From: a bacterium
GTDB lineage: Bacteria > Bacillota_I > Bacilli_A > RF39 > UBA660
Assembly (NCBI GenBank): GCA_022779465.1
Contig: JALFTB010000001.1
Location: 3,824 to 67,823 of the forward strand
DNA: 64,000 nt
Direction: 5' to 3'
Shown here: piece by piece, positions 20,880 to 64,000 of the stretch
Layout: every line of letters begins with the position of its first letter
Numbering within the stretch: position 1 is the first letter of the stretch
Program-made: the position numbers and the translations under genes
Notes under the pieces: model-generated
Told to the model about the DNA's origin: nothing
What the model saw: only the letters and a program-made list of their open reading frames with translations
Databases searched by the model: none

Positions 20880-21237
20880 TGGTGGAGCCGAGCAGAATTG
20901 AACTGCTGTCCAAAATACTTCCATAGTACAATCTACAAGTTTAGATAATTTGTTATTTCACTAGTAGGAAGAAAACTATCTAAATTACTACTAGCTAAGC
21001 TTTAAAATTTTCGTTAAACAAACTAAGCAATCTATTTAATATAATCTACTATTATGAACCAATTTAAAACTCTGTAGATTTAGTCTTAAACCAGTGCTCC
21101 GTGCCAACTATTAGGCAAATGCTAGAGCTGTATTATAATTTGTTTTGTCAGTTATTTTAACTGTTTTGCTATTTAGGATAGCAACCACTTGCATGTAAAA
21201 CAGAATATATATTTTGTCGAAACCAAAAAACGGCCCC
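20880..21237 (-). ncRNA. ssrA: tmRNA (SsrA)
   Basis: The 5' end reads GGGGCCGTTTTTTGGTTTCGAC and the 3' end GGACAGCAGTTCAATTCTGCTCGGCTCCACCA. The acceptor stem pairs with a G3-U wobble. The T-arm is CAGCAG-UUCAAUU-CUGCUG. An internal tag reading frame reads ...DKTNYNTALAFA and ends in tandem TAA TAG. No ORF is called across this 358 nt gap. Confidence 0.85.
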
Positions 21238-21271: not shown

Positions 21272-21574
21272 TCAATTATCTTTAAATTTTAAAATTATTT
21301 CGCCATCTTTAGATAGCATGAATTTTTCACGAGCGTATTTAGCAACATAGTTTGGATCTTGTAGTTTAGTTATTGCACTGTTTAGTTCTTCTTCTTCTTT
21401 TAGTAATGCTGTATATGAATCTTCTAATTCTTTAGTTTGTTTACGATTTGATAAAATGTCTGACCAGCAATTATAAGAAAATACAGCTAAGTAAGAAATA
21501 ACAATAACAATTAATAATGACCAAATCATGATACGTCTTTTATCTTTTTTTGTTAATTTACTCATGACAAACAC
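21272..21574 (-). CDS. divIC: septum formation initiator DivIC/FtsB family
   Basis: A single TM (IMIWSLLIVIVISYLAVF) is followed by a coiled coil. It sits in the yabP-yabQ-divIC synteny. Confidence 0.7.
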   Translation of the reverse strand: MFVMSKLTKKDKRRIMIWSLLIVIVISYLAVFSYNCWSDILSNRKQTKELEDSYTALLKEEEELNSAITKLQDPNYVAKYAREKFMLSKDGEIILKFKDN

Positions 21575-21618
21575 TCTCCGTATTATGATTATATCATTTT
21601 TTTGATTTTTTGAATTAA

Positions 21619-21861
21619 TTAATTTTTGACTTTACGCTTTTTTGGTAAAATTTTACACTTATTATTTAATAAGTATCCTAATATCAATGATATTTTTAAT
21701 ATATAATTTATAGTTCCATCATTTAATAAGTAAATTATATAAATATATAGAATTGTATGTATGACTGTTGTTATTAACATTTTAAAATTATTTAATTTTG
21801 ATATATATAAATAGAAATATCCAAATATAAAAGATATTAATATTAAAAATAACTGTTTCAT
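21619..21861 (-). CDS. yabQ: YabQ-like small membrane sporulation protein
   Basis: The 80 aa product has two TM helices and lies immediately downstream of yabP, overlapping it by 4 nt. Confidence 0.5.
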   Translation of the reverse strand: MKQLFLILISFIFGYFYLYISKLNNFKMLITTVIHTILYIYIIYLLNDGTINYILKISLILGYLLNNKCKILPKKRKVKN

Positions 21862-22139
21862 TTAAATAATTTTACTAATAAACTATTTTCTTTTTGAGAT
21901 ACCTCATTATATGAAAAACTATTTATTTTACCTTTTATAGATACATTACCATCTATTGTATCTAATTTTATTATTTCTAGGTTTTCACCTTTAATTATGA
22001 TATTGCCCATAATTGATTCCAGATTGAATTCTTTGTCATCAAAATTAATTATTTTTTTAATTCCACTTATAATAATATTTTTGCGATCATTTAATTTAAC
22101 AACATGTGTAAATGATGGTACATCGATTAGTTTATCCAT
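21858..22139 (-). CDS. yabP: sporulation protein YabP
   Basis: The 93 aa product shows the YabP pattern (IISGIKKIINFDDKEFNLESIMGNIIIKGENLEI). Confidence 0.7.
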   Translation of the reverse strand: MDKLIDVPSFTHVVKLNDRKNIIISGIKKIINFDDKEFNLESIMGNIIIKGENLEIIKLDTIDGNVSIKGKINSFSYNEVSQKENSLLVKLFK

Positions 22140-22191
22140 AAAAAAGCCTCCTATTAATTAATAATATGAGGCTAATCTATTAATATGACAA

Positions 22192-22449
22192 TTAAGCTGC
22201 TTTATTGTATTCTTCAATAATAGCGTCTTCAAATTGTTTACGAACATCTGGATTAATTGGATGAGCAATGTCTCTATATCCGCCTGTTGCAGTTTTTCTA
22301 CTAGGCATAGCTATAAACAAACCGTTGTCTCCTTCTATAACTCTAATGTCGTGTACAGCAAATGCATCGTCTAGTAATACAGAAGCAATTCCTTTCATAC
22401 GAGAGCCTTCTTTTTCAACTTTTCTAACGCTAACAGATGTAATTTTCAT
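22192..22449 (-). CDS. spoVG: septation/sporulation regulator SpoVG
   Basis: The sequence [12 protein letters not shown]...[24 protein letters not shown] is close to canonical SpoVG. The start is taken at MKIT. Confidence 0.9.
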
Positions 22450-22522
22450 AACATTCACTCCTTCTATTATACTGTCTTAGTTAATTTAATTTTAATCTAT
22501 TGTTCAACAAATTGCAATATAT

Positions 22523-22735
22523 TTATGATAAAAAGTTTATTATAATATCTTTACTTAAAATATCTGAGTACGAATAACTCTTTTTTTCTATACCATTAGA
22601 TACTATAAATACATGACTATAACATTCTGATATGTAGCCATAAAATATTTCATTTCTGTTTCTATTTTCTCTTGATGTAACTTTTATTTCTTGATTTAAA
22701 TGATTTCTTATATTTGTTTTAATTGATTCAATCAT
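22523..22735 (-). CDS. veg: Veg protein
   Basis: The 70 aa product shows the Veg signature (SRENRNRNEIFYGYISECYSHVFIV....SYSYSDILS). Confidence 0.8.
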   Translation of the reverse strand: MIESIKTNIRNHLNQEIKVTSRENRNRNEIFYGYISECYSHVFIVSNGIEKKSYSYSDILSKDIIINFLS

Positions 22736-23514
22736 CTTGGATACCCCACATACATAAGTCCATTACAAACAACTCCTCCCATTCCATCGGAACCATATTT
22801 GGTTTTATTTAAAAGTTCAATTAAATCTATTGTTTTCATTTTGTCGGTTAAAGCAATTGATGAAGCTATTATGGCAGGATCTAAAGCATGAATATTTACT
22901 CTTTTGGGACTAGATGCAAAATTTGCTCCACATTTAATTAATTCTTCATAATCGCTTTGACATGCACCAGCAATTATTATTAACTTGTCATGGTTTTTTT
23001 CATATTTTCTTGCTTTTTTAACTGATTCACAAAAATATTTTGAATTACGATAATTATTTAAATTTGTTTTAGAACCTTTCTTTGGATAATATGCATCATG
23101 ACCAGTTATTATGACAATGTCAGGATTACATTCTAATAAATATTTATTGATTTTATTTGGTAATTCTTCTTCACTTACAACTTTTCCAAAAGCTTTTAAA
23201 TTGTTTTGTTTATAATAATTTAGACATCTATTTAAATATTCTTCGTCACCATCGCAATGTAAAATTTTGGCTGGCATATAAAAGTATTCATTGCGATCTA
23301 AATTGTCATTATTGGTAACTTTGTATTCAAAATTATCTTTGCGATTTTCTGTATATAAAACTAAATCTTCAATCGGACTATCTGCATATAATCTGACATT
23401 TTCACCTTTTAAATAACAAACTCCATCTTTTATGTTTAAAATTTTAAATATTGTATCGTTATTATAACTTTTTCTTGTTACATAGTCGCCTTTTTTAAAG
23501 TTCATAGTTACCAC
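22732..23514 (-). CDS. yabG: sporulation-specific protease YabG
   Basis: The N-terminus FKKGDYVTRKSYNNDTIFKIL resembles the B. subtilis YabG start. It sits in the veg-yabG-ksgA synteny. Confidence 0.7.
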   Translation of the reverse strand: MVTMNFKKGDYVTRKSYNNDTIFKILNIKDGVCYLKGENVRLYADSPIEDLVLYTENRKDNFEYKVTNNDNLDRNEYFYMPAKILHCDGDEEYLNRCLNYYKQNNLKAFGKVVSEEELPNKINKYLLECNPDIVIITGHDAYYPKKGSKTNLNNYRNSKYFCESVKKARKYEKNHDKLIIIAGACQSDYEELIKCGANFASSPKRVNIHALDPAIIASSIALTDKMKTIDLIELLNKTKYGSDGMGGVVCNGLMYVGYPR

Positions 23515-27289: not shown

Positions 27290-27520
27290 TCTAAAAAAAA
27301 TTCATAAACTAAAGGACGACTTAATGCCGTGGTACCACCTTAATTCATGAATTTCATGCACTTATATCTTAACGCGATTATTACGTTTGAACTCCAGAAC
27401 CATATTCATTATCAATAAATAATTCTCTTTCACCAAGCAAGAACTCTCTTTGTATTTACTAAATAATTACTCTTTCCTTCTTCGTTCAATATAGTTCATT
27501 CTAACATAATATGTTGATTT
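27290..27520 (-). promoter_or_regulatory. T-box riboswitch leader of metG
   Basis: The minus-strand leader contains the T-box sequence AATTAAGGTGGTACCACGGCATTAAG (plus coordinates 27321-27345). A terminator helix and a U-run (plus-strand A-run near 27291-27298) lie just upstream of the metG RBS. Confidence 0.75.
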
Positions 27521-27522
27521 TA

Positions 27523-27936
27523 TCAAGAATAATCAAAATAAGAAGATATTATTCTAGAAATTAATTTAAGAAATTTTTGATTTTCATCATTATTGTCTAT
27601 ATATATTTTAACCTTGCCAATTTCAATTGAATTCATTATTATTTCAGTTTCAATAAAATGATTACTTGGACTTATGGAAATAATCTTTTTATTTCGATCA
27701 GTTATTTCTATTCCATACTTATATATTTCATTTATATATTCCGCGATTGACTTGATGTAATTGTAATAATTTTCTAAATATGAATATTTAGATATAAGTA
27801 TTTTTGAATCGTCGGAAGTAATCATTATATTTTCATTTTCTTGTATTTTTAACTTGTGTCTTACTTCTTTAGGAATTACTATTCTTCCTAATTCATCTAT
27901 TTTTCTTATATAATTATTTGTTTTCACATATACCAC
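27523..27936 (-). CDS. SpoVT/AbrB-family transcriptional regulator (SpoVT-like by position and N-terminal domain)
   Basis: The N-terminal swapped-hairpin domain IRKIDELGRIVIPKEVRHKLKI...ILISKYS aligns with SpoVT/AbrB. It lies directly downstream of mfd. The C-terminal part is short (137 aa in total), with no clear GAF domain. Confidence 0.6.
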   Translation of the reverse strand: MVYVKTNNYIRKIDELGRIVIPKEVRHKLKIQENENIMITSDDSKILISKYSYLENYYNYIKSIAEYINEIYKYGIEITDRNKKIISISPSNHFIETEIIMNSIEIGKVKIYIDNNDENQKFLKLISRIISSYFDYS

Positions 27937-36703: not shown

Positions 36704-37126
36704 TTATCTTTTATTTTCCCAAAATTTTTCAATTATTTTTTTATATTTATCTATAGAATTTTCATTACTTTTTTCTTCGATTTGAAAAAAGTTAGTCTTA
36801 TTGTATATTTTTTTAGATTTTAAACGTGGAACTAAATAAAATACCTTGTCAATTCTACTTTCTTTTATAACATTTTTACACATTTCACATGGTTCAATTG
36901 TTACATATAACGTACAATTGTTCAATCTCCAATTTTTTAATTTTTGATTTGCTTTTGTAATTACTTTAATTTCAGCATGATCAATAGTTTTATTACTATG
37001 TTTTCTAGTATTATGGGCTTTGGCAATTATTTTATCGTTATGTACAATGATGGCGGCCACAGGTACTTCATCTTTTTTTAATGACTTATAGGATAGTTTT
37101 ATTAATTCATCTATATATTTTTCCAT
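36704..37126 (-). CDS. tadA: tRNA-specific adenosine deaminase
   Basis: The CDA-fold motifs HAEI and PCEMC are present. The true start is the internal MEKYIDEL with a GAGGAG RBS. The ORF-track N-terminal extension runs through the SRP RNA gene and is spurious. Confidence 0.8.
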   Translation of the reverse strand: MEKYIDELIKLSYKSLKKDEVPVAAIIVHNDKIIAKAHNTRKHSNKTIDHAEIKVITKANQKLKNWRLNNCTLYVTIEPCEMCKNVIKESRIDKVFYLVPRLKSKKIYNKTNFFQIEEKSNENSIDKYKKIIEKFWENKR

Positions 37127-37136
37127 TTTACTCCTC

Positions 37137-37216
37137 AAAAAAAGCGCACATACATAGAGGCAAATATGGCTGCTTTCTTCCGAATCTGACCAGGTTATTG
37201 CGTTTGTATTGCGCAT
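37137..37216 (-). ncRNA. ffs: small (4.5S-type) signal recognition particle RNA
   Basis: The minus-strand RNA reads GCGCAAUACAAACGCAAUAACCUGGUCAGAUUCGGAAGAAAGCAGCCAUAUUUGCCUCUAUGUAUGUGCGC plus a U7 run. It contains the conserved domain IV motif (GGUCAG...GGAAG.AAGCAGCC) inside a long closing helix. A TTGAAA-N17/18-TATATT promoter lies at about 37222-37258. Confidence 0.75.
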
Positions 37217-37295
37217 ATATAATATAGCATATTTTAATTACAGATTTCAATAATTGGATTTTTACTAATTTTAAAAATTTGTATTTTTTATTTTT

Positions 37296-40510: not shown

Positions 40511-42439
40511 CTAAATATCAAGATTTTGTGTAAATCCAGCATTAGCTTCGATAAATTTTCTTCTTGGCTCTACTTCTTCTCCCATTAATTGTGAGAATAC
40601 TTCATCTGCTGCTATACAATCATCTACAGTAATTCTTCTTAAAACTCTTTTATTTATATCCATTGTTGTTTCATTTAATTCATCTGGGTCCATTTCACCT
40701 AAACCTTTATTTCTAGTTATTTCAACTCTAGAACGTATATTTTCTGGTAAACTTGATATATATTTTTCTCTTTCTTCTTCAGTAAGAACATATTTTCTTG
40801 TTTTACCATGAGTTATTCTATATAAAGGTGGTTGTGCTGCATAAACATGGCCTTGTTGAACAATTGGTTTAAATAAGCGATAAAATAATGTTAATAATAA
40901 TACTCTAATATGAGCACCATCGACATCGGCATCGGTCATAATTATAATTTTGTTATATCTTAATTTAGAAATATCAAATTCTTGTCCTATTCCAGTACCA
41001 AATGCAGTGATAATAGAACGTATTTCTTCATTACTTAAGGCACGATCTAATCTATTTTTTTCAACATTTAATATTTTACCTTTTAATGGAAGAATAGCTT
41101 GAGTCATTGCGTCTCTACCTTCTTTAGCAGAGCCACCGGCTGAATCTCCCTCGACTATAAATATTTCGGTTTCTAATGGATCTTTACTTTTACAATCTGA
41201 TAATTTACCAAATGTATTTATTCTTTGTAAATCGCCTTTTCTTTCTATTTCTCTAGCTTTTTTAGCGGCATTTCTTGCACGAGAAGCAAGTAAAGCTTTA
41301 TCGATGATAATTTTAGCATCAGTTGGATTTTCCATTAAGAATCTATCGAATCCTTTAGAGAATACACTATCAGCTAGTTTTCTAACTTCTGAATTACCTA
41401 ATCTACCTTTGGTTTGTCCTTCAAATTGTGGATTTGGATGTTTACAAGAGATAATCATTGTTAAACCTTCTTTAACGTCATCTCCTGTTAATGATTCATC
41501 TTTTTCTTTTAATATATTATTTTTGCGGGCATAATTATTAATAATTCTTGTTAATGCTCTTCTTACACCCTCTTCATGAGTTCCACCATCGTGGGTATTA
41601 ATGTTATTAACAAATGAATAAATATTATCTGTATAACCATTATTGTATTGCATTGCAACTTCAAAGAAAATACCATCTTCTGATCCTTCTACATGTATAA
41701 TATCATCATGAATAGGTGTTTTATTTTGATTTAAATATTTTACATATTCCTTTATTCCACCTTCATATAAGAATGTTTCACCTGTAGTATCTTTTTCGTC
41801 ACGATCATCTCTTAGGGTTAATCTTAAGCCTTTATTTAAAAATGCTAATTCTCTAATACGAACTCTTAAAGTATCATAATCATAGATTTCTGTATCAAAT
41901 ATTTCTGGATCCGGTTTAAATGTTACAGTTGTTCCAGTTCTATTTTCTTCACATGTACCTATTTCAGTTAATTTTTGAACAGTTTTTCCACCATTTGCAA
42001 ATTTTGCTTCATAAATTTTACAATCTTTATAAACATTAACATTAACCCATTTTGATAATGCGTTAACTACTGAGGCACCTACTCCGTGAAGACCACCTGA
42101 TACTTTATATCCGCCGCCACCGAATTTACCTCCAGCATGTAGTACTGTGTATACTGTTTCTACTGTGGAAATACCTGTTTTTGGATGAATTCCAACTGGA
42201 ATACCTCTACCATCGTCTTTGACAGTTACAGAATTGTCTTTGTTAATAATTATTTCTATATTATTACAATAACCAGCTAAAGCTTCATCTATAGAGTTAT
42301 CTACAATTTCCCATACTAGATGATGTAAGCCTTTAACATCAGTAGTACCAATGTACATACCAGGGCGTTTTCTTACGGCTTCAAGACCTTCTAAAACCTG
42401 AATATCACTTTCTGAATAATGTTCTTTTTGTTCATTCAT
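40511..42439 (-). CDS. gyrB: DNA gyrase subunit B
   Basis: It has a GHKL ATPase, Toprim motifs EGDSAGG and [10 protein letters not shown], and is 642 aa. Confidence 0.95.
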
Positions 42440-43532
42440 ATTTCTTTACCTCTACTTTCTTGTTGGATATTTTTATTACACTACAATCTTTTAAAAGTTT
42501 TTTATTTACTTTATCAATATCAGTTGTAGTTATAAATATTTGAAAACTTTTTTTAAAATTAGCAATTAAGGTATTAATTTTTTTATTATCTAATTCACTA
42601 AATAAATCATCTAAAATTAAAATTGGAGTTTTACCAGTATTGTTAATACAATATTTTATTTCTGCTAATTTAAATGATATAATGGCATTTTTTTGTTCTC
42701 CTTCAGATAAATAATTTTTTGCTTCTTTGCCGTTTTCTAGTTCAAAGATAAAATCATCTAAGTGAATTCCAACGTGGGTCATACCATAATTTAAATCTCT
42801 TTTAAAACTTCTAGTGTATTCTTTTATTAAATCATCTTTGGTTTTATCATTATAATGAGATACATAATTAATTTTAAGATTTGATTTTTTTACTGATTTA
42901 TAAAATATTGGTTCTAAATATTCATTTATTTCATCAATATATTGTTTTCTGATATGATTTATTTTTAATCCGATATCAATTAATTTATCCGTCATTATAT
43001 CTAAATAATCTTTTGGTATAGTACTGTTAATAAGCATCGATTTTAAATACATATTACGTTGTTTCATGATTTTGTTGTAAATACTTAATAATTTTAAATA
43101 TTCATTATTAAATTCTGATAACTCCATATTTATTAGTTTACGATGAGTACTAGGATTGTCTTTAATCAATTTTGAGTCTTCTCTATTAAATAACACAACA
43201 TTTAATTTAGATATATAATCACTAATTTTAGTTACTGAAGAATTATCAATTTTAATATTTTTACCCTTTTTGTTAATGACAATTTTATAATTATTATAAA
43301 TTTTATCTTTAATTCTTCCTTCAATAACGGCAAATTCGTTATTATCTTTAATTAAATTTTGATCTTCATTAGTTCTAAATGATTTTGTTAAAGCTAAATA
43401 ATAGATTGCTTCAACTATATTTGTTTTTCCGACTCCATTGTTACCTATTATAATATTTTTATAATCTGAAAAATTTAAATCTAATTTATCATATGAACGA
43501 AAATTTGTAAGTTTTAGATTAGTGATTTTCAT
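42432..43532 (-). CDS. recF: DNA replication and repair protein RecF
   Basis: The N-terminus [14 protein letters not shown] has a Walker A (GNNGVGKTN). It overlaps gyrB by 8 nt. Confidence 0.9.
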
Positions 43533-43629
43533 TTTAAACCCTCTTTTAAAGTCATATATTAATAAAATAGGTATATCTGTGTCCCTATACCTATTTAATT
43601 ATATCATAAAATAAACTATGTTTAAACAA

Positions 43630-44079
43630 TTATTTACCCTTTTTTCGGTTTTTAAAAGCTGTTTCTAATGATAAAGATTTTAAATATTGATTTTGAATAA
43701 TTCTATATGAAGTATCTATTTCTATACATTCATTATTTAAAAATTCGATTATGCTTTTTTCGGATTTAGAATGAACTTTTTTGATGTTATTTACGTTGAT
43801 CCACGCACAATCTTTTAGTCTTGGTGAACAAGTTGGAAAAAATATAATGCTTTTATCTTCTTCAACTATAATTGGCGCTTTATAGTTAAAACCAGTTAAT
43901 GAATATGTGCCTTGAATTCGTCCAGAAATACTACTTCCGTAATATTTACAGTTAGAATCCATTATTTTTAGGATTTTTTCATCAACAATATAACATTCAT
44001 GGTCTTCATAAATTACAGTTTTCTTTTTTCCAATTGGTATTAATGCAAGCGTATTTTTGTTAATTTCATAATCTTTCAT
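43630..44079 (-). CDS. comK: ComK-family transcription factor
   Basis: The product aligns along its length with B. subtilis ComK. Matching segments include YEINKNTLALIPIG, NCKYYGSSISGRIQGTYSLTGFNYKAPIIVEEDKSIIFFPTCSPRLKDCAWINVNN and SYRIIQNQYLKSLSLETAFKNR. It is 149 aa, shorter at the C-terminus than ComK (192 aa). Confidence 0.8.
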   Translation of the reverse strand: MKDYEINKNTLALIPIGKKKTVIYEDHECYIVDEKILKIMDSNCKYYGSSISGRIQGTYSLTGFNYKAPIIVEEDKSIIFFPTCSPRLKDCAWINVNNIKKVHSKSEKSIIEFLNNECIEIDTSYRIIQNQYLKSLSLETAFKNRKKGK

Positions 44080-44117
44080 AACTTCACCCCCTGTTGGGAT
44101 ACAATTAAAACACTTTT

Positions 44118-44150
44118 TTTTGTCGAAATTTGTCGAATTTTGTCGAAAAT
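44118..44150 (-). promoter_or_regulatory. three tandem Spo0A-box repeats (TGTCGAA) at 10 bp phasing in the comK-like promoter region
   Basis: TTTGTCGAAA repeats sit at 44121-27, 44131-37 and 44141-47. All are perfect 0A-box heptamers in direct orientation, 40-70 bp upstream of the comK-like ATG. Confidence 0.6.
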
Positions 44151-44160
44151 TATGATTTTT

Positions 44161-44190
44161 TGCAAAAAAAAATGAGTTTTTGGCTCATTT
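44161..44190 (-). terminator. dnaN rho-independent terminator
   Basis: The minus-strand stem AAUGAG-CCAAAAA-CUCAUU is followed by a U9 run and abuts the dnaN stop. Confidence 0.65.
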
Positions 44191-45305
44191 TAATATGTTT
44201 TGATAGGTAAAATTAATTGAATTAGTGTTTCATCTTTAGCAGATTTTAAAATTATTGGACTTGAATCATTATTTAAGAAGATAATTAATTCTTCATCTTC
44301 AAAAGTTTTTAAAGCGTCAATCATATATTTTGAACTAAATGATATTGAAATATCTTGTTCATTTGATTTATTTATTAAAATACTTTCTTCTGATTTACCA
44401 ATTTCACTAGCATAAGAAGAAATTAATAATTCTGTGTTATTTGTTTCCATTTTAATGATATTTTTATCTTTATTTTGTGTTAATAAAGCTGCTCTATCTA
44501 TAGCATTGTAATAATCATTTAATGATGTTGTTATAACAAATTCAAATTTTGTTGGGATTAAATTGTTAGTATTTGGATAACTACCACTTAATAAACTAGA
44601 TTGGAAGATATAATTCATGTATTTAAATACTATTTTGTTATTAAATACATGGATTTCCACATCAGATTCATCTGTGATTAATTTATCTAATTCATTAATA
44701 TTTTTTCCTGGAATTACAATATCACGTGAATCATATGCATTATCTAATGTAATTGTTTTTTTAGCTAAACGATATGAGTCAGTTGCAACACATTCCATAA
44801 CATTTCCATTAATTTTTAAGTTAATTCCCGTTAAAATAGGTCTTGATTCTTGAGTTGAAACTGCAAATAATGTTTTATTAATTGCTTGTTTTAATGTAGT
44901 ACTGTTAATAACTATTGGGTTTTCCACTTCTTCTAAATTAATATCAGGATAATCAGCAGTATCTAAACAATTTAAATTATATATAGTTTTATCAGTACTA
45001 ATTATAATTTTTAATCCGTCTATAACTTCAATGTTGATATCTCCATTTGGTAATTTTCTAATTATCTCTAATAAATATTTACTTTGAATAACTATTTTTC
45101 CAGGAATAGCTATATTTTTGATTTTTTCTTTTGGGATAAAGTTTCTAATAGTTAAATCACTATCACTTGCTGTTAAGTATAAGCCCTCTTCTCTTAAATC
45201 AAACATAACTCCATTTAATATAGGAATAATATTCTTAGGAGAAATGGCTCTCATTACATTTGTTAAACTTTCTAATAAAACGTTTTTTTCAATTAATAAT
45301 TTCAT
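44190..45305 (-). CDS. dnaN: DNA polymerase III beta sliding clamp
   Basis: The N-terminus is MKLLIEKNVLLESLTNVMRAI and the 371 aa product has the three-domain clamp length. Confidence 0.95.
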   Translation of the reverse strand: MKLLIEKNVLLESLTNVMRAISPKNIIPILNGVMFDLREEGLYLTASDSDLTIRNFIPKEKIKNIAIPGKIVIQSKYLLEIIRKLPNGDINIEVIDGLKIIISTDKTIYNLNCLDTADYPDINLEEVENPIVINSTTLKQAINKTLFAVSTQESRPILTGINLKINGNVMECVATDSYRLAKKTITLDNAYDSRDIVIPGKNINELDKLITDESDVEIHVFNNKIVFKYMNYIFQSSLLSGSYPNTNNLIPTKFEFVITTSLNDYYNAIDRAALLTQNKDKNIIKMETNNTELLISSYASEIGKSEESILINKSNEQDISISFSSKYMIDALKTFEDEELIIFLNNDSSPIILKSAKDETLIQLILPIKTY

Positions 45306-45418: not shown

Positions 45419-46789
45419 CTAATTAACAATTTTATTTTTAATTTCTTCTAATGTTTCTTTAAGTTCCATATTTGTTTTTAATTCAGTACTGATTTTTTCA
45501 TAAGCGTGTAATACAGTTGAATGATCTCGATTACCAAATTCTAATCCTATTTTAACGATTGTTTCTTCTGTTGTCATTCGGCAAAGATATATGGCAATTT
45601 GTCTAGGATAATTAATATTTGCAGTTCTTTTTTTACTTTTTAAGTCCTCTACCGTTATTTTGTAGTGGTCTGCTACTGCTTTTTGAATTCTTTGAATATC
45701 ATTTGTTATATATATTGATTTTCCTAAATAATCTTTTAAAGCTTCAACTGCAAATTCCAAGTTAATTTCTTTAGGTCCCATCATTGCTGCATATGCATAA
45801 AGTCTTGTTATAGCACCTTCTAAATGTCTTACATCGTTTTCACAATTAGATGCAATATATTCTATAACGTCGTTTTTAACTAGTCTTGCAACTTCATGAC
45901 CAGTCATTTTTGCTTTTAAAATCTTACATCTTAGTTCAAAATCTGGTGGATCAATATTAACTGTTAATCCCCATCTAAATCTTGTTAATAACCTGTCTTC
46001 TAAATATTTAAGGTCATCTGGTGATTTATCCGAACTTATAATAATTTGTTTATTTGAATCATATAATGTTGTAAAAGTGTGGAAAAATTCTTGTTGAGAT
46101 TTTGCAGCTCCTGATAGGAATTGAATATCATCTATCATTAAAATGTCGATATTTCGGTATTTTTCCTTAAAGTGATCAATTATATCATTATTATTATCAT
46201 TTTCATCTTTAATATCTTTACGATTTATTCCAATAAAATCTGAAATAAATTCTTCACTTGTTACGTATAAAACTGTTTTATTTGTATGACTTTCAATATA
46301 ATTACCGATTGCATGCATTAAATGGGTTTTACCTAGTCCACTTTTTCCGTATATAAATAATGGATTATAGATTTTTCCGGGTTGTTCTGCGACTGCAAGT
46401 GCTGCAGTTTGTGCAAATCTGTTACTATCCCCTATTACAAAGTTTTCAAAAGTATATTTTTCGTTTAAATTTGAATTTATTTTTTTATATTGTTTATCAA
46501 CTATGTTAAGATTATTGTTTATTTCTGGGCTTTCTTCCACATTTTTTTTAGTAGTAAAATTAAGATTATAATTTTCTCCTGTGATAGCAAATACAATTTC
46601 ATGAATAAAATCGTAATAATATTGATTTAAATAGTCTGACGTAAATACTGAATCTGCTTCAATATTCATTGTGATACCTTCAATAGATTTTAATTTAGTT
46701 TCTGCAAACCAGGAATTAAATGATATATCAGGTACTTTACTTTGAATAACATTTAAAACATTAGTCCATAGTTCATCATAATTCTGCAT
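45419..46789 (-). CDS. dnaA: chromosomal replication initiator DnaA
   Basis: An AAA+ core (GKSGLGKTHL) is followed by a C-terminal DnaA-box binding domain. The start is taken at the internal MQNYDELWTNVL, which has a GGGTGAGGAA RBS. The ORF-track N-terminal extension is spurious. Confidence 0.95.
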   Translation of the reverse strand: MQNYDELWTNVLNVIQSKVPDISFNSWFAETKLKSIEGITMNIEADSVFTSDYLNQYYYDFIHEIVFAITGENYNLNFTTKKNVEESPEINNNLNIVDKQYKKINSNLNEKYTFENFVIGDSNRFAQTAALAVAEQPGKIYNPLFIYGKSGLGKTHLMHAIGNYIESHTNKTVLYVTSEEFISDFIGINRKDIKDENDNNNDIIDHFKEKYRNIDILMIDDIQFLSGAAKSQQEFFHTFTTLYDSNKQIIISSDKSPDDLKYLEDRLLTRFRWGLTVNIDPPDFELRCKILKAKMTGHEVARLVKNDVIEYIASNCENDVRHLEGAITRLYAYAAMMGPKEINLEFAVEALKDYLGKSIYITNDIQRIQKAVADHYKITVEDLKSKKRTANINYPRQIAIYLCRMTTEETIVKIGLEFGNRDHSTVLHAYEKISTELKTNMELKETLEEIKNKIVN

Positions 46790-47030
46790 TTCCTCACCCA
46801 CCTTAGTTTGCTTTCTTAAGTTAATTTTAAAACAATCCTGTGGAAAAATAAAGAATAAAAATGAAAAATTTGTTTTTCCAAAGTTTTTCCACAGCTTTAT
46901 CAACAAAACTCACCCTATTTTATCGCACTAAAAACACTTTTTCAACATTTTCCACAAAATAAAATTAACATTAATTTTTGAAATCCACATTTTCCAATTT
47001 TTGTAAAAAATGTGGAAAAATATTTGGCTG
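46790..47030. promoter_or_regulatory. oriC DnaA-box cluster upstream of dnaA
   Basis: TGTGGAAAA or TTTTCCACA-type boxes lie at 46839-47, 46885-93, 46948-56, 46981-89 and 47011-19. Confidence 0.65.
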
Positions 47031-59153: not shown

Positions 59154-59666
59154 TTGAAAAAAATACTAGTTATTATAGGAGTAATATTATTTTTATTAAG
59201 CATAAATTATAATAATAAAGAAGAAGTATTTATTCCTAAAGATTCTATTAGATTTAGAATAGTAAGTAATAGTATGAATGAAGTTGATTTAAAAACTAAA
59301 CAAGAGTTAAAAAGTTATATAGAAGATTATGTTTATGATATAGTAAGTGATGCTAAAAGTAGTGAAGAAGCGGATGAATTATTGGTTAATAATTTAGAAA
59401 AAATTAGCAAACATATTAATCAATATTTGAATTCTAACAACTATAAAATAGATTACGGTATAAATTATTTTCCAAGAAAGGTATATAAAGGAGTTGTATA
59501 TGAAGAAGGTATGTATAAATCTTTAGTAATAACTTTAGGAGATGGAAAAGGTTCTAATTGGTGGTGTGTTTTATTTCCACCATTATGTTTATTAGATGAA
59601 AATGAAACAACAGCAGATGTTGATTATCAATTATATGTTGCTAGAATAATTAAAGTATTTAATTAA
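59154..59666 (+). CDS. spoIIR: stage II sporulation protein R
   Basis: A signal anchor, RFRIVSNSMNEVDLK and the near-invariant NWWCVLFPPLC motif are present. The ORF uses a TTG start. Confidence 0.7.
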   Translation: MKKILVIIGVILFLLSINYNNKEEVFIPKDSIRFRIVSNSMNEVDLKTKQELKSYIEDYVYDIVSDAKSSEEADELLVNNLEKISKHINQYLNSNNYKIDYGINYFPRKVYKGVVYEEGMYKSLVITLGDGKGSNWWCVLFPPLCLLDENETTADVDYQLYVARIIKVFN

Positions 59667-59687
59667 TATACTTAACTAGGTGGTCCA

Positions 59688-60221
59688 ATGTTAAGTATTT
59701 TTTTTATTGGAATTGCACTATCAATGGATGCGTTTTCAATTGCTTTATCTATAGGTACTAATAATTTATCTAAAAAAAGTATTGGTTTAAGTATTACTTT
59801 AGTTGGCTTAATGCATTTTATAATGCCTCAATTAGGACTTATGTTGGGAAATCAAGTATATAATTTTATAAATATAAATCCCAAATTTATTATATCTGTA
59901 ATACTTTATTATTTAATAATAGTTATGTATTTTGATAAATCTAGTAAGAATGTGAATATTGAATCCTTTATTAACATTTTTTTATTTGCTTTTAGTGTTA
60001 GTATTGATAGTTTTTCAGTAGGAATTGGACTTAAAGGATTAACTGAACATTATATATTAGCATCAATTGTATTTTCCTTATGTGCTTTTTGTATTACTTA
60101 TATTGGATTAGTGCTTGGAAAGTATTCTTTAAAGATTTTAAAAAACAAAACTAAGTATGTTGGGATGATATTGCTTTTTATTACTGCAACTGTCAATTTA
60201 TGTCAATTATTTATTGATTAA
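59688..60221 (+). CDS. MntP/YtaF (UPF0059) family membrane protein, putative Mn efflux or sporulation membrane protein
   Basis: Two repeated SMDAFS/SIDSFS motifs are present, with six TM helices in a 177 aa product. Confidence 0.55.
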   Translation: MLSIFFIGIALSMDAFSIALSIGTNNLSKKSIGLSITLVGLMHFIMPQLGLMLGNQVYNFININPKFIISVILYYLIIVMYFDKSSKNVNIESFINIFLFAFSVSIDSFSVGIGLKGLTEHYILASIVFSLCAFCITYIGLVLGKYSLKILKNKTKYVGMILLFITATVNLCQLFID

Positions 60222-62720: not shown

Positions 62721-63425
62721 TTGTTAGGAGTTGTGTCTGCAGAAATGCCTGCTTTGTTTAATATTGAAGCATTAAAAGCGCAAGTAGTTGCTTCTAGAAG
62801 TTTTATTTTAAGTCAAAGCAATGATAGAATTCTTAATACTACAAGTGGAGCTCAAGCTTATCAAGATTTATATGAACTAAGTAATAAGTGGAATGATAAA
62901 TATTATGAATATTTATCTAAAATGCAAAAAGCAATTGAGGAAACAAAAAATGAAGTAATAAAAAGAGATAATAAAATATTAAGGACATATTATTTTGCTA
63001 TGAGTAATGGATATACTGAAAATTCTCAAACTGTTTTTAAACAAGAACTATTTGAAAGTGTAAAATCTGATGAAGGAAGAGATACTAAATATAAAATAAC
63101 TTTAACTTTAGATGAATTTAAAAATAAATTAAATGTAGGTACAGTAAACATAGGTGAAATAAAAAGAAATAATACTAATCATGTAGATTATATTATGATT
63201 AATAATAATAAATATAGTGGGATTGATTTTAGAAAAAAGCTTAATTTAAGATCAACTGATTTTAATATTGAAATAAATAATAATAATGTTGTGATTGAAA
63301 CTAATGGTTATGGACATGGGGTTGGTATGAGTCAATATGGAGCTAATGCCATGGCAAAAAAAGGTTATAATTATAAAGAAATTCTTGAATATTATTATCA
63401 AAATATTGATATTTTAAAAATATAG
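62721..63425 (+). CDS. spoIID: stage II sporulation protein D (SpoIID/LytB domain); 5' end probably extends to about 62550
   Basis: The product has SpoIID signatures (LLGVVSAEMPALFNIEALKAQVVASRS, NGYGHGVGMSQYGA). The same frame stays open upstream to 62526 and encodes a signal anchor (KKIVLLILFLIPIYISSF) with no canonical start codon. Confidence 0.7.
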   Translation: MLGVVSAEMPALFNIEALKAQVVASRSFILSQSNDRILNTTSGAQAYQDLYELSNKWNDKYYEYLSKMQKAIEETKNEVIKRDNKILRTYYFAMSNGYTENSQTVFKQELFESVKSDEGRDTKYKITLTLDEFKNKLNVGTVNIGEIKRNNTNHVDYIMINNNKYSGIDFRKKLNLRSTDFNIEINNNNVVIETNGYGHGVGMSQYGANAMAKKGYNYKEILEYYYQNIDILKI

Positions 63426-63472: not shown

Positions 63473-64000
63473 ATGAAACCAAAATATAGATTAAAAGGTT
63501 GGGTAGTAGCTTGTATTTATGTAATTTCAATAGGAGCAATTGTTTCAAGTATGGTTTTACTTGGTAAAACTTTGAAAGGTTCTTTTTATACTGAAGACAA
63601 TTTGTCTTATGTATATCATGGAATATTTGAAGATCCAGTACCAGTAGTAAAATATAAAGATGATAAAATTATAAAACCATTTAATAGTGAAGATGTAAAT
63701 GTATTAAAAAAATATTATGATAAAGATGCCGAAAGTAATGTTCAAGAAGAATCTTTATTATTTTATCAAAATACATATATGCCAAATACAGGAATACTTT
63801 ATAGTAACAAAGAAAGTTTTGATGTAGTTTCTGTATTAGATGGAACTGTTGAATCAGTTGTAGCTGATGAAATAATGGGTAATATTGTTACTGTAAAACA
63901 TTCAAATAACTTAACAACAGTTTATCAATGTTTAAATGAAGTACATGTTATGACTGGAGATTTAATTAAACAAGGTGATGTAATTGGAACAAGTGGTATA
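63473..64000 (+). CDS. membrane-anchored M23/LytM-family peptidase (SpoIIQ-like), C-terminus beyond the window
   Basis: An N-terminal TM (GWVVACIYVISIGAIVSSMVLL) is followed by an M23 fold (GILYSNKESFDVVSVLDGTVESV...GNIVTVKHSNNLTTVYQCLNEVHV). It lies directly after spoIID. Confidence 0.6.
   Translation, partial: MKPKYRLKGWVVACIYVISIGAIVSSMVLLGKTLKGSFYTEDNLSYVYHGIFEDPVPVVKYKDDKIIKPFNSEDVNVLKKYYDKDAESNVQEESLLFYQNTYMPNTGILYSNKESFDVVSVLDGTVESVVADEIMGNIVTVKHSNNLTTVYQCLNEVHVMTGDLIKQGDVIGTSGI

Follow-up and report, generated by a model that had tools for sequence, protein, structure and literature searches.

Spo0A recognizes the 0A box, whose core motif is TGTCGAA, and paired boxes 3 bp apart give a 25-30-bp Spo0A footprint at A2c of phages phi29 and Nf, overlapping part of the core promoter (PMC2731898). 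Base-specific contacts are made to G2, C4, and G5 of the motif, and even in Clostridioides difficile binding can be predicted from a perfect box (PMC3485338). The closest described system to the locus reported here is the comK promoter of Bacillus subtilis, which Spo0A~P binds directly, as a preliminary description of this DNA had stated, at five imperfect sites (A1 to A3, R1, and R2; Mirouze et al. 2012, PMC3297582). These sites are dispersed, carry one or two mismatches each, and are interspersed with ComK boxes and a Rok site, and one of them, R1, overlaps the core promoter. A tandem arrangement is found at abrB and at A2c, where two heptamers lie head to tail with a 3-bp spacer and a 10-bp period and serve as repressor sites (PMC2731898). 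The same motif recurs in the autoregulatory 0A boxes upstream of spo0A in B. subtilis (PMC12090719) and C. difficile (PMC3485338), and 0A boxes that overlap DnaA boxes in oriC have also been mentioned (PMC2731898).

In a 64-kb stretch of DNA (the window) from an uncultured lineage of small-genome gut Bacilli, we found three perfect 0A boxes in strict 10-bp phase, extending from -50 to -24 of the predicted promoter of a comK gene that lies between dnaN and recF. The regulator-target pair gating competence would be the same as in B. subtilis, and the array overlaps the core promoter as R1 does, but the boxes are perfect and phased rather than degenerate and scattered, and there are no recognizable ComK boxes. 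Compared with the pairs at abrB and A2c, the comK array is a triplet of perfect boxes. The Spo0A-activated promoters spoIIG and spoIIE have no properly spaced -35 element; instead, a 0A box of theirs contains a hexamer resembling TTGACA, placed 21-22 bp from the -10. The comK promoter has perfect boxes where theirs are weak, and it has one more box within the spacer (-30 to -24). It differs also from the spo0A arrays of AT-rich Bacilli, which lie at least about 45 nt upstream of the -10, the typical position of an upstream activator, whereas the comK array abuts the -10. With the 0A boxes of oriC it shares the proximity to the origin and, in relatives, an abutting DnaA-box-like element and some hybrid boxes, yet its place is the promoter of a gene, with the DnaA-box cluster about 3 kb away. 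Thus, while the regulator, the motif, the tandem binding mode, and the Spo0A-comK link are already known, the new elements are the host lineage, the clean triple-box architecture on the core promoter, the conservation of the array across dozens of species, and the fixed position of comK between dnaN and recF.

Three phased 0A boxes upstream of comK

The gene previously described as comK-like (43630..44079, minus strand, 149 aa) is a real comK, matching the Pfam ComK family over its full length (PF06338, E=4.1e-37, profile positions 2-151 of 152), and more than 120 homologues of it were retrieved. It belongs to a run of genes, all on the minus strand, in the order dnaA, dnaN, comK, recF, gyrB, and gyrA. 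Its direct upstream neighbor, dnaN (44190..45305, minus strand), is the same-strand upstream neighbor in all 80 related species, and recF (42432..43532, minus strand) follows directly downstream in 75 of the 80, the contigs of the other five ending early. The seat of comK within the dnaA-dnaN-recF-gyrB-gyrA cluster, between dnaN and recF, was seen across loci L011-L090; in B. subtilis this position is taken by yaaA/rlbA.

On the plus strand, positions 44119-44148 read TTTGTCGAAA TTTGTCGAAT TTTGTCGAAA, with TGTCGAA starting at 44121, 44131, and 44141. The period is exactly 10 bp, and Tandem Repeats Finder reports 3.0 copies of a 10-bp unit. The boxes lie 42-68 nt upstream of the comK ATG (44079), so that the preliminary description was right in both the three heptamers at 10-bp spacing and their distance of 40-70 bp from the start of the gene. 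Since the genes here are on the minus strand, the boxes read TTCGACA in gene orientation. Relative to a transcription start predicted near 44097, the distal box 1 (44141..44147, minus strand) spans about -50 to -44 and is kept in relatives; the middle box 2 (44131..44137, minus strand) occupies about -40 to -34, its TCGACA lying 21 bp upstream of the -10 hexamer; and the promoter-proximal box 3 (44121..44127, minus strand), at about -30 to -24, is the best conserved. All three are perfect 7-bp 0A boxes (TGTCGAA, fitting TGNCGAA) with A/T flanks (TTTGTCGAAA), and their head-to-tail order with a 3-bp spacer is the arrangement that has been footprinted for Spo0A (PMC2731898).

TGTCGAA occurs eight times on the two strands of the window, against 2.93 expected from shuffled sequence, and the five copies outside the array fall inside genes or the tmRNA gene. 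Of 20 occurrences of the looser TGNCGAA, only four are intergenic, namely, the three array boxes and one at 63727. The phased three-box array is unique to the comK upstream region within the window. With the shuffle rate of about 2.3e-5 per position and strand, the chance of three boxes in exact phase, if they were independent, is on the order of 1e-9.

Downstream of the boxes we predict an extended -10 element, TG-T-TTTAAT (44104..44112, minus strand), which matches the consensus and, in relatives farther off, becomes TGnTATAAG. Profiling of 30 distinct arrays likewise shows a TG dinucleotide and a T-W-T-A-A-K hexamer at a fixed distance after the boxes, and the end of box 3 is separated from the -10 hexamer by 11 nt in nearly all relatives, one small group having 12 nt instead. 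The positions 16-18 bp upstream of the predicted -10 hold no -35 hexamer. The array is thus intergenic and holds a fixed position relative to the core elements of the predicted promoter, which is followed by a comK ribosome-binding site, GGGGGTGA (44084..44091, minus strand), kept in relatives. On the far side of the array, the dnaN terminator named in the preliminary description corresponds to a weak hairpin with a U9 tract (44164..44191, minus strand; -5.5 kcal/mol, z=-1.6). It consists of an 8-bp A/U-rich stem followed by nine U, relatives keep a hairpin there with different stems, and it is a plausible, though not strong, intrinsic terminator of dnaN. No Rfam family matches the comK upstream region. 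Downstream of the gene, a strong hairpin lies between comK and recF (43560-43601; -13.4 kcal/mol and z=-2.4 for the 76-nt stretch 43560-43635), itself downstream of a promoter-like TTTAAA-17-TGnTATAAT, and could be a comK terminator or a recF leader structure.

Conservation of the array and arrays upstream of spo0A

Within the species, exactly three copies are present in all 11 assemblies. To the comK loci of 80 species-level genomes, with ComK identities of 94-42%, we applied a definition of the array as TTCGACA-like boxes with at most one mismatch each, in exact 10-bp phase, within 120 nt upstream of comK. At least three phased boxes were found in 27 of the 80 loci and two in another eight, so that 35 loci carry two to four, every one of these arrays being on the comK strand and none on the opposite strand. 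In the remaining 401 kb of the same loci, read on both strands as control DNA, there is one array of at least two boxes and none of at least three. In roughly half of the related species, one box at most is present, and the control is therefore not universal in the lineage.

The profile of the 30 distinct arrays places the conservation in the heptamers, with peaks at C3, G4, and C6 of TTCGACA. In TGTCGAA they are G5, C4, and G2, which Spo0A contacts, and they are 80-100% conserved; in box 3 the three positions reach 97%, 97%, and 100%. Box 2 is the least conserved and in relatives often reads TTCGGCA, which still fits TGNCGAA, its A5 (the N of that motif) being among the weakest positions (A in 24 of 30 arrays, G in four). 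Of the 3-bp spacers, only the A/T character is retained. As judged from this pattern of conservation, the array is a selected cis-element.

The statement that this organism carries many sporulation genes holds for the window, where we found yabG (22732-23514; 297 bits against an NCBIfam cut-off of 270), yabP (21858-22139; 83.6 bits against 75.4), spoIIR (59154-59666; E=6e-34), a gene for a SpoIID-domain protein after murA (62721-63425), and a short SpoVT/AbrB-like gene after mfd (in the region 27523-27936). The gene divIC is also present, with yabG and yabP in 21272-23514, spoIIR is followed by a gene for an MntP/YtaF-like membrane protein (59154-60221), and these sporulation-related genes stand in a B. 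subtilis-like order. In related uncultured orders, sporulating families are reported to encode spo0A and families without spo0A to be nonsporulating (PMC10868615). In the portion of this genome available, about 84 kb, the gene itself was found neither in the 64-kb window nor in the 10 kb beyond its left end, and the assignment of spo0A to this genome, which we consider very likely, is based on the sporulation genes of the window together with that literature.

Metagenome contigs were scanned with RAIRHAIE, a part of the Spo0A recognition helix, in a back-translation biased toward AT, and all 120 matches proved to be real spo0A genes, none of which could be linked to the species of the window. 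They include a large clade of 22-30% GC whose proteins are annotated at NCBI as Spo0A of "Bacilli bacterium" metagenome-assembled genomes (MAGs). Spo0A of this AT-rich clade reads LHELG-PSHIKGY-YIREG ... SRVERAIRHAIEVSW with the recognition helix SRVERAIRHAIE unchanged; since part of the helix served as the search pattern, the conservation of RAIRHAIE is by construction, and only the flanking residues are independent. TTCGACA occurs on the coding strand in about 30 of the 39 distinct spo0A upstream regions of the clade, often in tandem as TTCGACA-N3-TTCGACA and in the orientation of the comK array. Across 945 kb of spo0A loci, the phased arrays of AT-rich Bacilli lie directly upstream of spo0A in 13 of 13 distinct loci, where they would be the expected autoregulatory site. 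The presence of tandem arrays at both comK and spo0A suggests that in these lineages the TTCGACA array marks Spo0A control, its strongest version being the one at comK.

Tandem boxes about 45-95 nt before the spo0A start codon were seen in L097, L113, L126, L128, L173, L174, L208, L211, L226, and L232. A further motif, TGCGTGGTAG or GCGTGCAGT, stands 5-25 nt before the spo0A start in L095, L102, L138, L165, L171, L186, L190, and L193, and in several AT-rich species spo0A is inserted in a glycolytic cluster, between tpiA and gpmI. A BLAST comparison of all spo0A loci with the window and its 10-kb extension gave a single match, a 70%-identical hpf in L116, and no synteny; by this similarity to the hpf at the left end of the window, L116 belongs to a relative. 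Tetranucleotide composition did not discriminate between species.

Predicted control of comK and competing readings

From these findings we consider it likely that the three heptamers are a high-affinity operator for phosphorylated Spo0A on the comK core promoter. Three perfect phased boxes at this promoter, kept in dozens of species, further point to a probable direct link between DNA uptake and the sporulation switch in the host lineage. Spo0A~P would bind head to tail, one molecule per box, on a single face of the helix, the 7-bp boxes and 3-bp A/T spacers permitting the binding mode of the abrB and phi29/Nf A2c pairs. Bound protein would extend over about -50 to -24 of a sigma-A promoter with an extended -10 (TGnTTTAAT) but without a -35 hexamer, and the level of Spo0A~P would thereby directly gate comK transcription and hence competence.

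As to the direction of control, we lean slightly toward activation over repression, given the absence of a -35, the imperfect -10 (TTTAAT), and the distance of 21 bp between TCGACA of box 2 and the -10 hexamer. Spo0A-activated promoters such as spoIIE and spoIIG have a geometry of 21-22 bp to the -10. The alternative, by analogy with R1 of B. subtilis PcomK and A2c of phi29, is repression by occlusion, since occupancy would reach -24 and the core-promoter sites at R1 (PMC3297582) and A2c (PMC2731898) repress. Spo0A-activated promoters do not usually carry a box within the -35/-10 spacer, as this one does at -30 to -24, which counts against a firm choice of direction, and a biphasic gate by Spo0A~P is possible. 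Species that lost boxes offer a comparison: among loci with a placeable -10 anchor, none has a -35 at 16-18 bp, whatever the number of boxes, and the few matches of at least 4/6 occur only in loci with a misplaced anchor. Box-losing species thus gained no -35, and the comparison is neutral between the two directions.

If the Spo0A reading is correct, the competence regulator is a direct, high-affinity Spo0A target in uncultured small-genome gut Bacilli with sporulation genes, and the array is computational evidence for an active Spo0A in organisms known only from metagenomes. The architecture, simpler than that of B. subtilis, would offer a compact model promoter for Spo0A acting across -50 to -24, and the dnaN-comK-recF order would put competence control beside the replication origin. 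Given that the Spo0A-comK link is already established, known biology is extended rather than overturned.

Among other readings, the direct repeats could be an operator of ComK itself, with changed specificity and positive autoregulation, or of another response regulator that recognizes 10-bp direct repeats. ComK autoregulates in B. subtilis (PMC3297582), and the ComK proteins of this lineage, short at 149 aa, have diverged and may differ in DNA specificity. On the other hand, heptamer, flanks, and spacing match the Spo0A site exactly, and arrays upstream of spo0A in related Bacilli are expected for Spo0A autoregulation and not for ComK. Direct-repeat geometry alone is common to many response regulators. 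The LytTR family, represented in the window by one response regulator (1020-1730), binds 9-bp repeats spaced 12 bp apart, a spacing that does not fit. With the exact match to Spo0A on the other side, we rate an operator of ComK or of another regulator as rather unlikely. B. subtilis-type ComK boxes (AAAA-N5-TTTT pairs at 8, 18, or 31 bp) were also sought and rejected, as they are not conserved upstream of comK anywhere in the lineage. With any spacer of 5-35 bp allowed, AT-box pairs are absent from the window and from 78 of the 80 related loci; the exceptions, a same-species assembly (L001; 8, 9, and 27 bp) and L021 (5 bp), are not conserved, and the pairs in L001 involve AAAA...TTTT of the dnaN hairpin.

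The neighborhood of the origin brings DnaA into consideration. The GC skew of the window turns near 47,000, marking the origin, and a cluster of TTTTCCACA DnaA boxes lies upstream of dnaA (46839-47020), with one more in the dnaA-dnaN spacer (45350). The mechanical dnaA open reading frame (45419-46906, TTG start, 495 aa) overruns some of these boxes, whereas gene callers give a protein of 456 aa starting at about 46789. In about 25 of the 80 relatives, box 1 is immediately adjoined by a DnaA-box-like TGTGNATAA, an element whose background frequency is 0.03 per 130 nt; these loci include L026-L029, L034, L053, L054, L084, and about 15 others, the element lies at -75 to -80 from the comK ATG, and nine of the copies are perfect at this fixed place. 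Four relatives have hybrid boxes, TTATCGACA. The comK promoter may be imagined as a composite DnaA/Spo0A switch within the dnaA-dnaN-recF cluster, whose ancestral layout would have been a consensus DnaA box, TGTGNATAA, abutting three 0A boxes, with the replication initiator and the sporulation regulator acting together or against each other within about 40 bp. Replication status would then be coupled to competence, and perhaps also to the expression of recF-gyrB or to the titration of DnaA beside oriC, and descendant lineages would have kept one input each, perfect 0A boxes here and DnaA-box palindromes in others. We judge such a switch unlikely. One clade has a decayed box 3 and a palindrome made up of TGTGNATAA and, placed 8 nt downstream of it, TTATCAACA/TTATTAACA.

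In another reading, the array is a cluster of weak DnaA boxes downstream of dnaN, through which DnaA would regulate comK, recF, and gyrB or be titrated near oriC. Besides the abutting and hybrid elements of relatives, the location within the dnaA-dnaN cluster speaks for it, and so does the 9-mer of box 1, TTTTCGACA, which differs from the local DnaA box by one base. However, compared with the local box, the three array 9-mers have 1, 3, and 2 mismatches, and boxes 2 and 3 show 2-3 differences from it and 3-4 from the DnaA consensus TTATNCACA. Between 87% and 97% of array boxes retain the G by which TTCGACA differs from TTCCACA, and TTCCACA itself was seen once in 90 boxes. Close-packed DnaA 9-mers repeat every 11 bp, unlike the array, whose 10-bp period (7+3) is the spacing of Spo0A. 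In the species of the window, moreover, the abutting DnaA-like element has decayed to AAATCATAA (44150-44158). With the distinguishing G kept, a 10-bp period, and two poor boxes out of three, DnaA boxes were rejected as the main explanation, which we regard as highly unlikely. A replication-proximal or oriC role for the 0A boxes, which the preliminary description had also raised, found no support in the window, where the oriC intergenic regions contain no TGNCGAA.

That the repeat has no sequence-specific function, being a slipped-strand 10-bp repeat or phased, DNA-bending A and T tracts of the UP-element kind, is hardly credible even for a short tandem unit in helical phase in DNA of 25% GC, because copy number is invariant within the species, the boxes persist where ComK is only 42-60% identical, with altered spacers and with conservation strongest at the G/C positions, and such repeats, which the earlier account allowed might be common outside promoters, occur nowhere else in the window and as one two-box array in the 401 kb of related DNA. 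A variable-number slipped-strand repeat is strongly disfavored by the stable copy number and by boxes kept while spacers vary, and conservation in the heptamers at a fixed promoter distance rules out a neutral one.

Other features of the window and its relatives

The exact proteins of the window are deposited at NCBI under MCI6763256-98. The exact ComK sequence is indexed in about 700 blocks of a public assembly collection, including pig-gut samples and the MAG GCA_902491265.1, and the relatives are MAGs labelled as uncultured Bacilli, Tenericutes, or Erysipelotrichaceae. A Spo0A (P0291, in a cluster of the L113 type) that lies on bacterial contigs of up to 1.3 Mb has been deposited as "Caudoviricetes sp." (DAX11913.1), probably a bacterial contig misfiled as viral.

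The gene for the LytTR-type response regulator has no adjacent histidine kinase; its neighbors are an amidase gene on one side and a gene for a cold-shock protein on the other, and a TGTCGAA at 1029 falls within its last codons. The window further contains a T-box leader before metG (27309-27491), a small SRP RNA (37129-37225) overlapping a mechanical open reading frame (36704-37216), and a tmRNA (20880-21237) with the tag peptide DKTNYNTALAFA.
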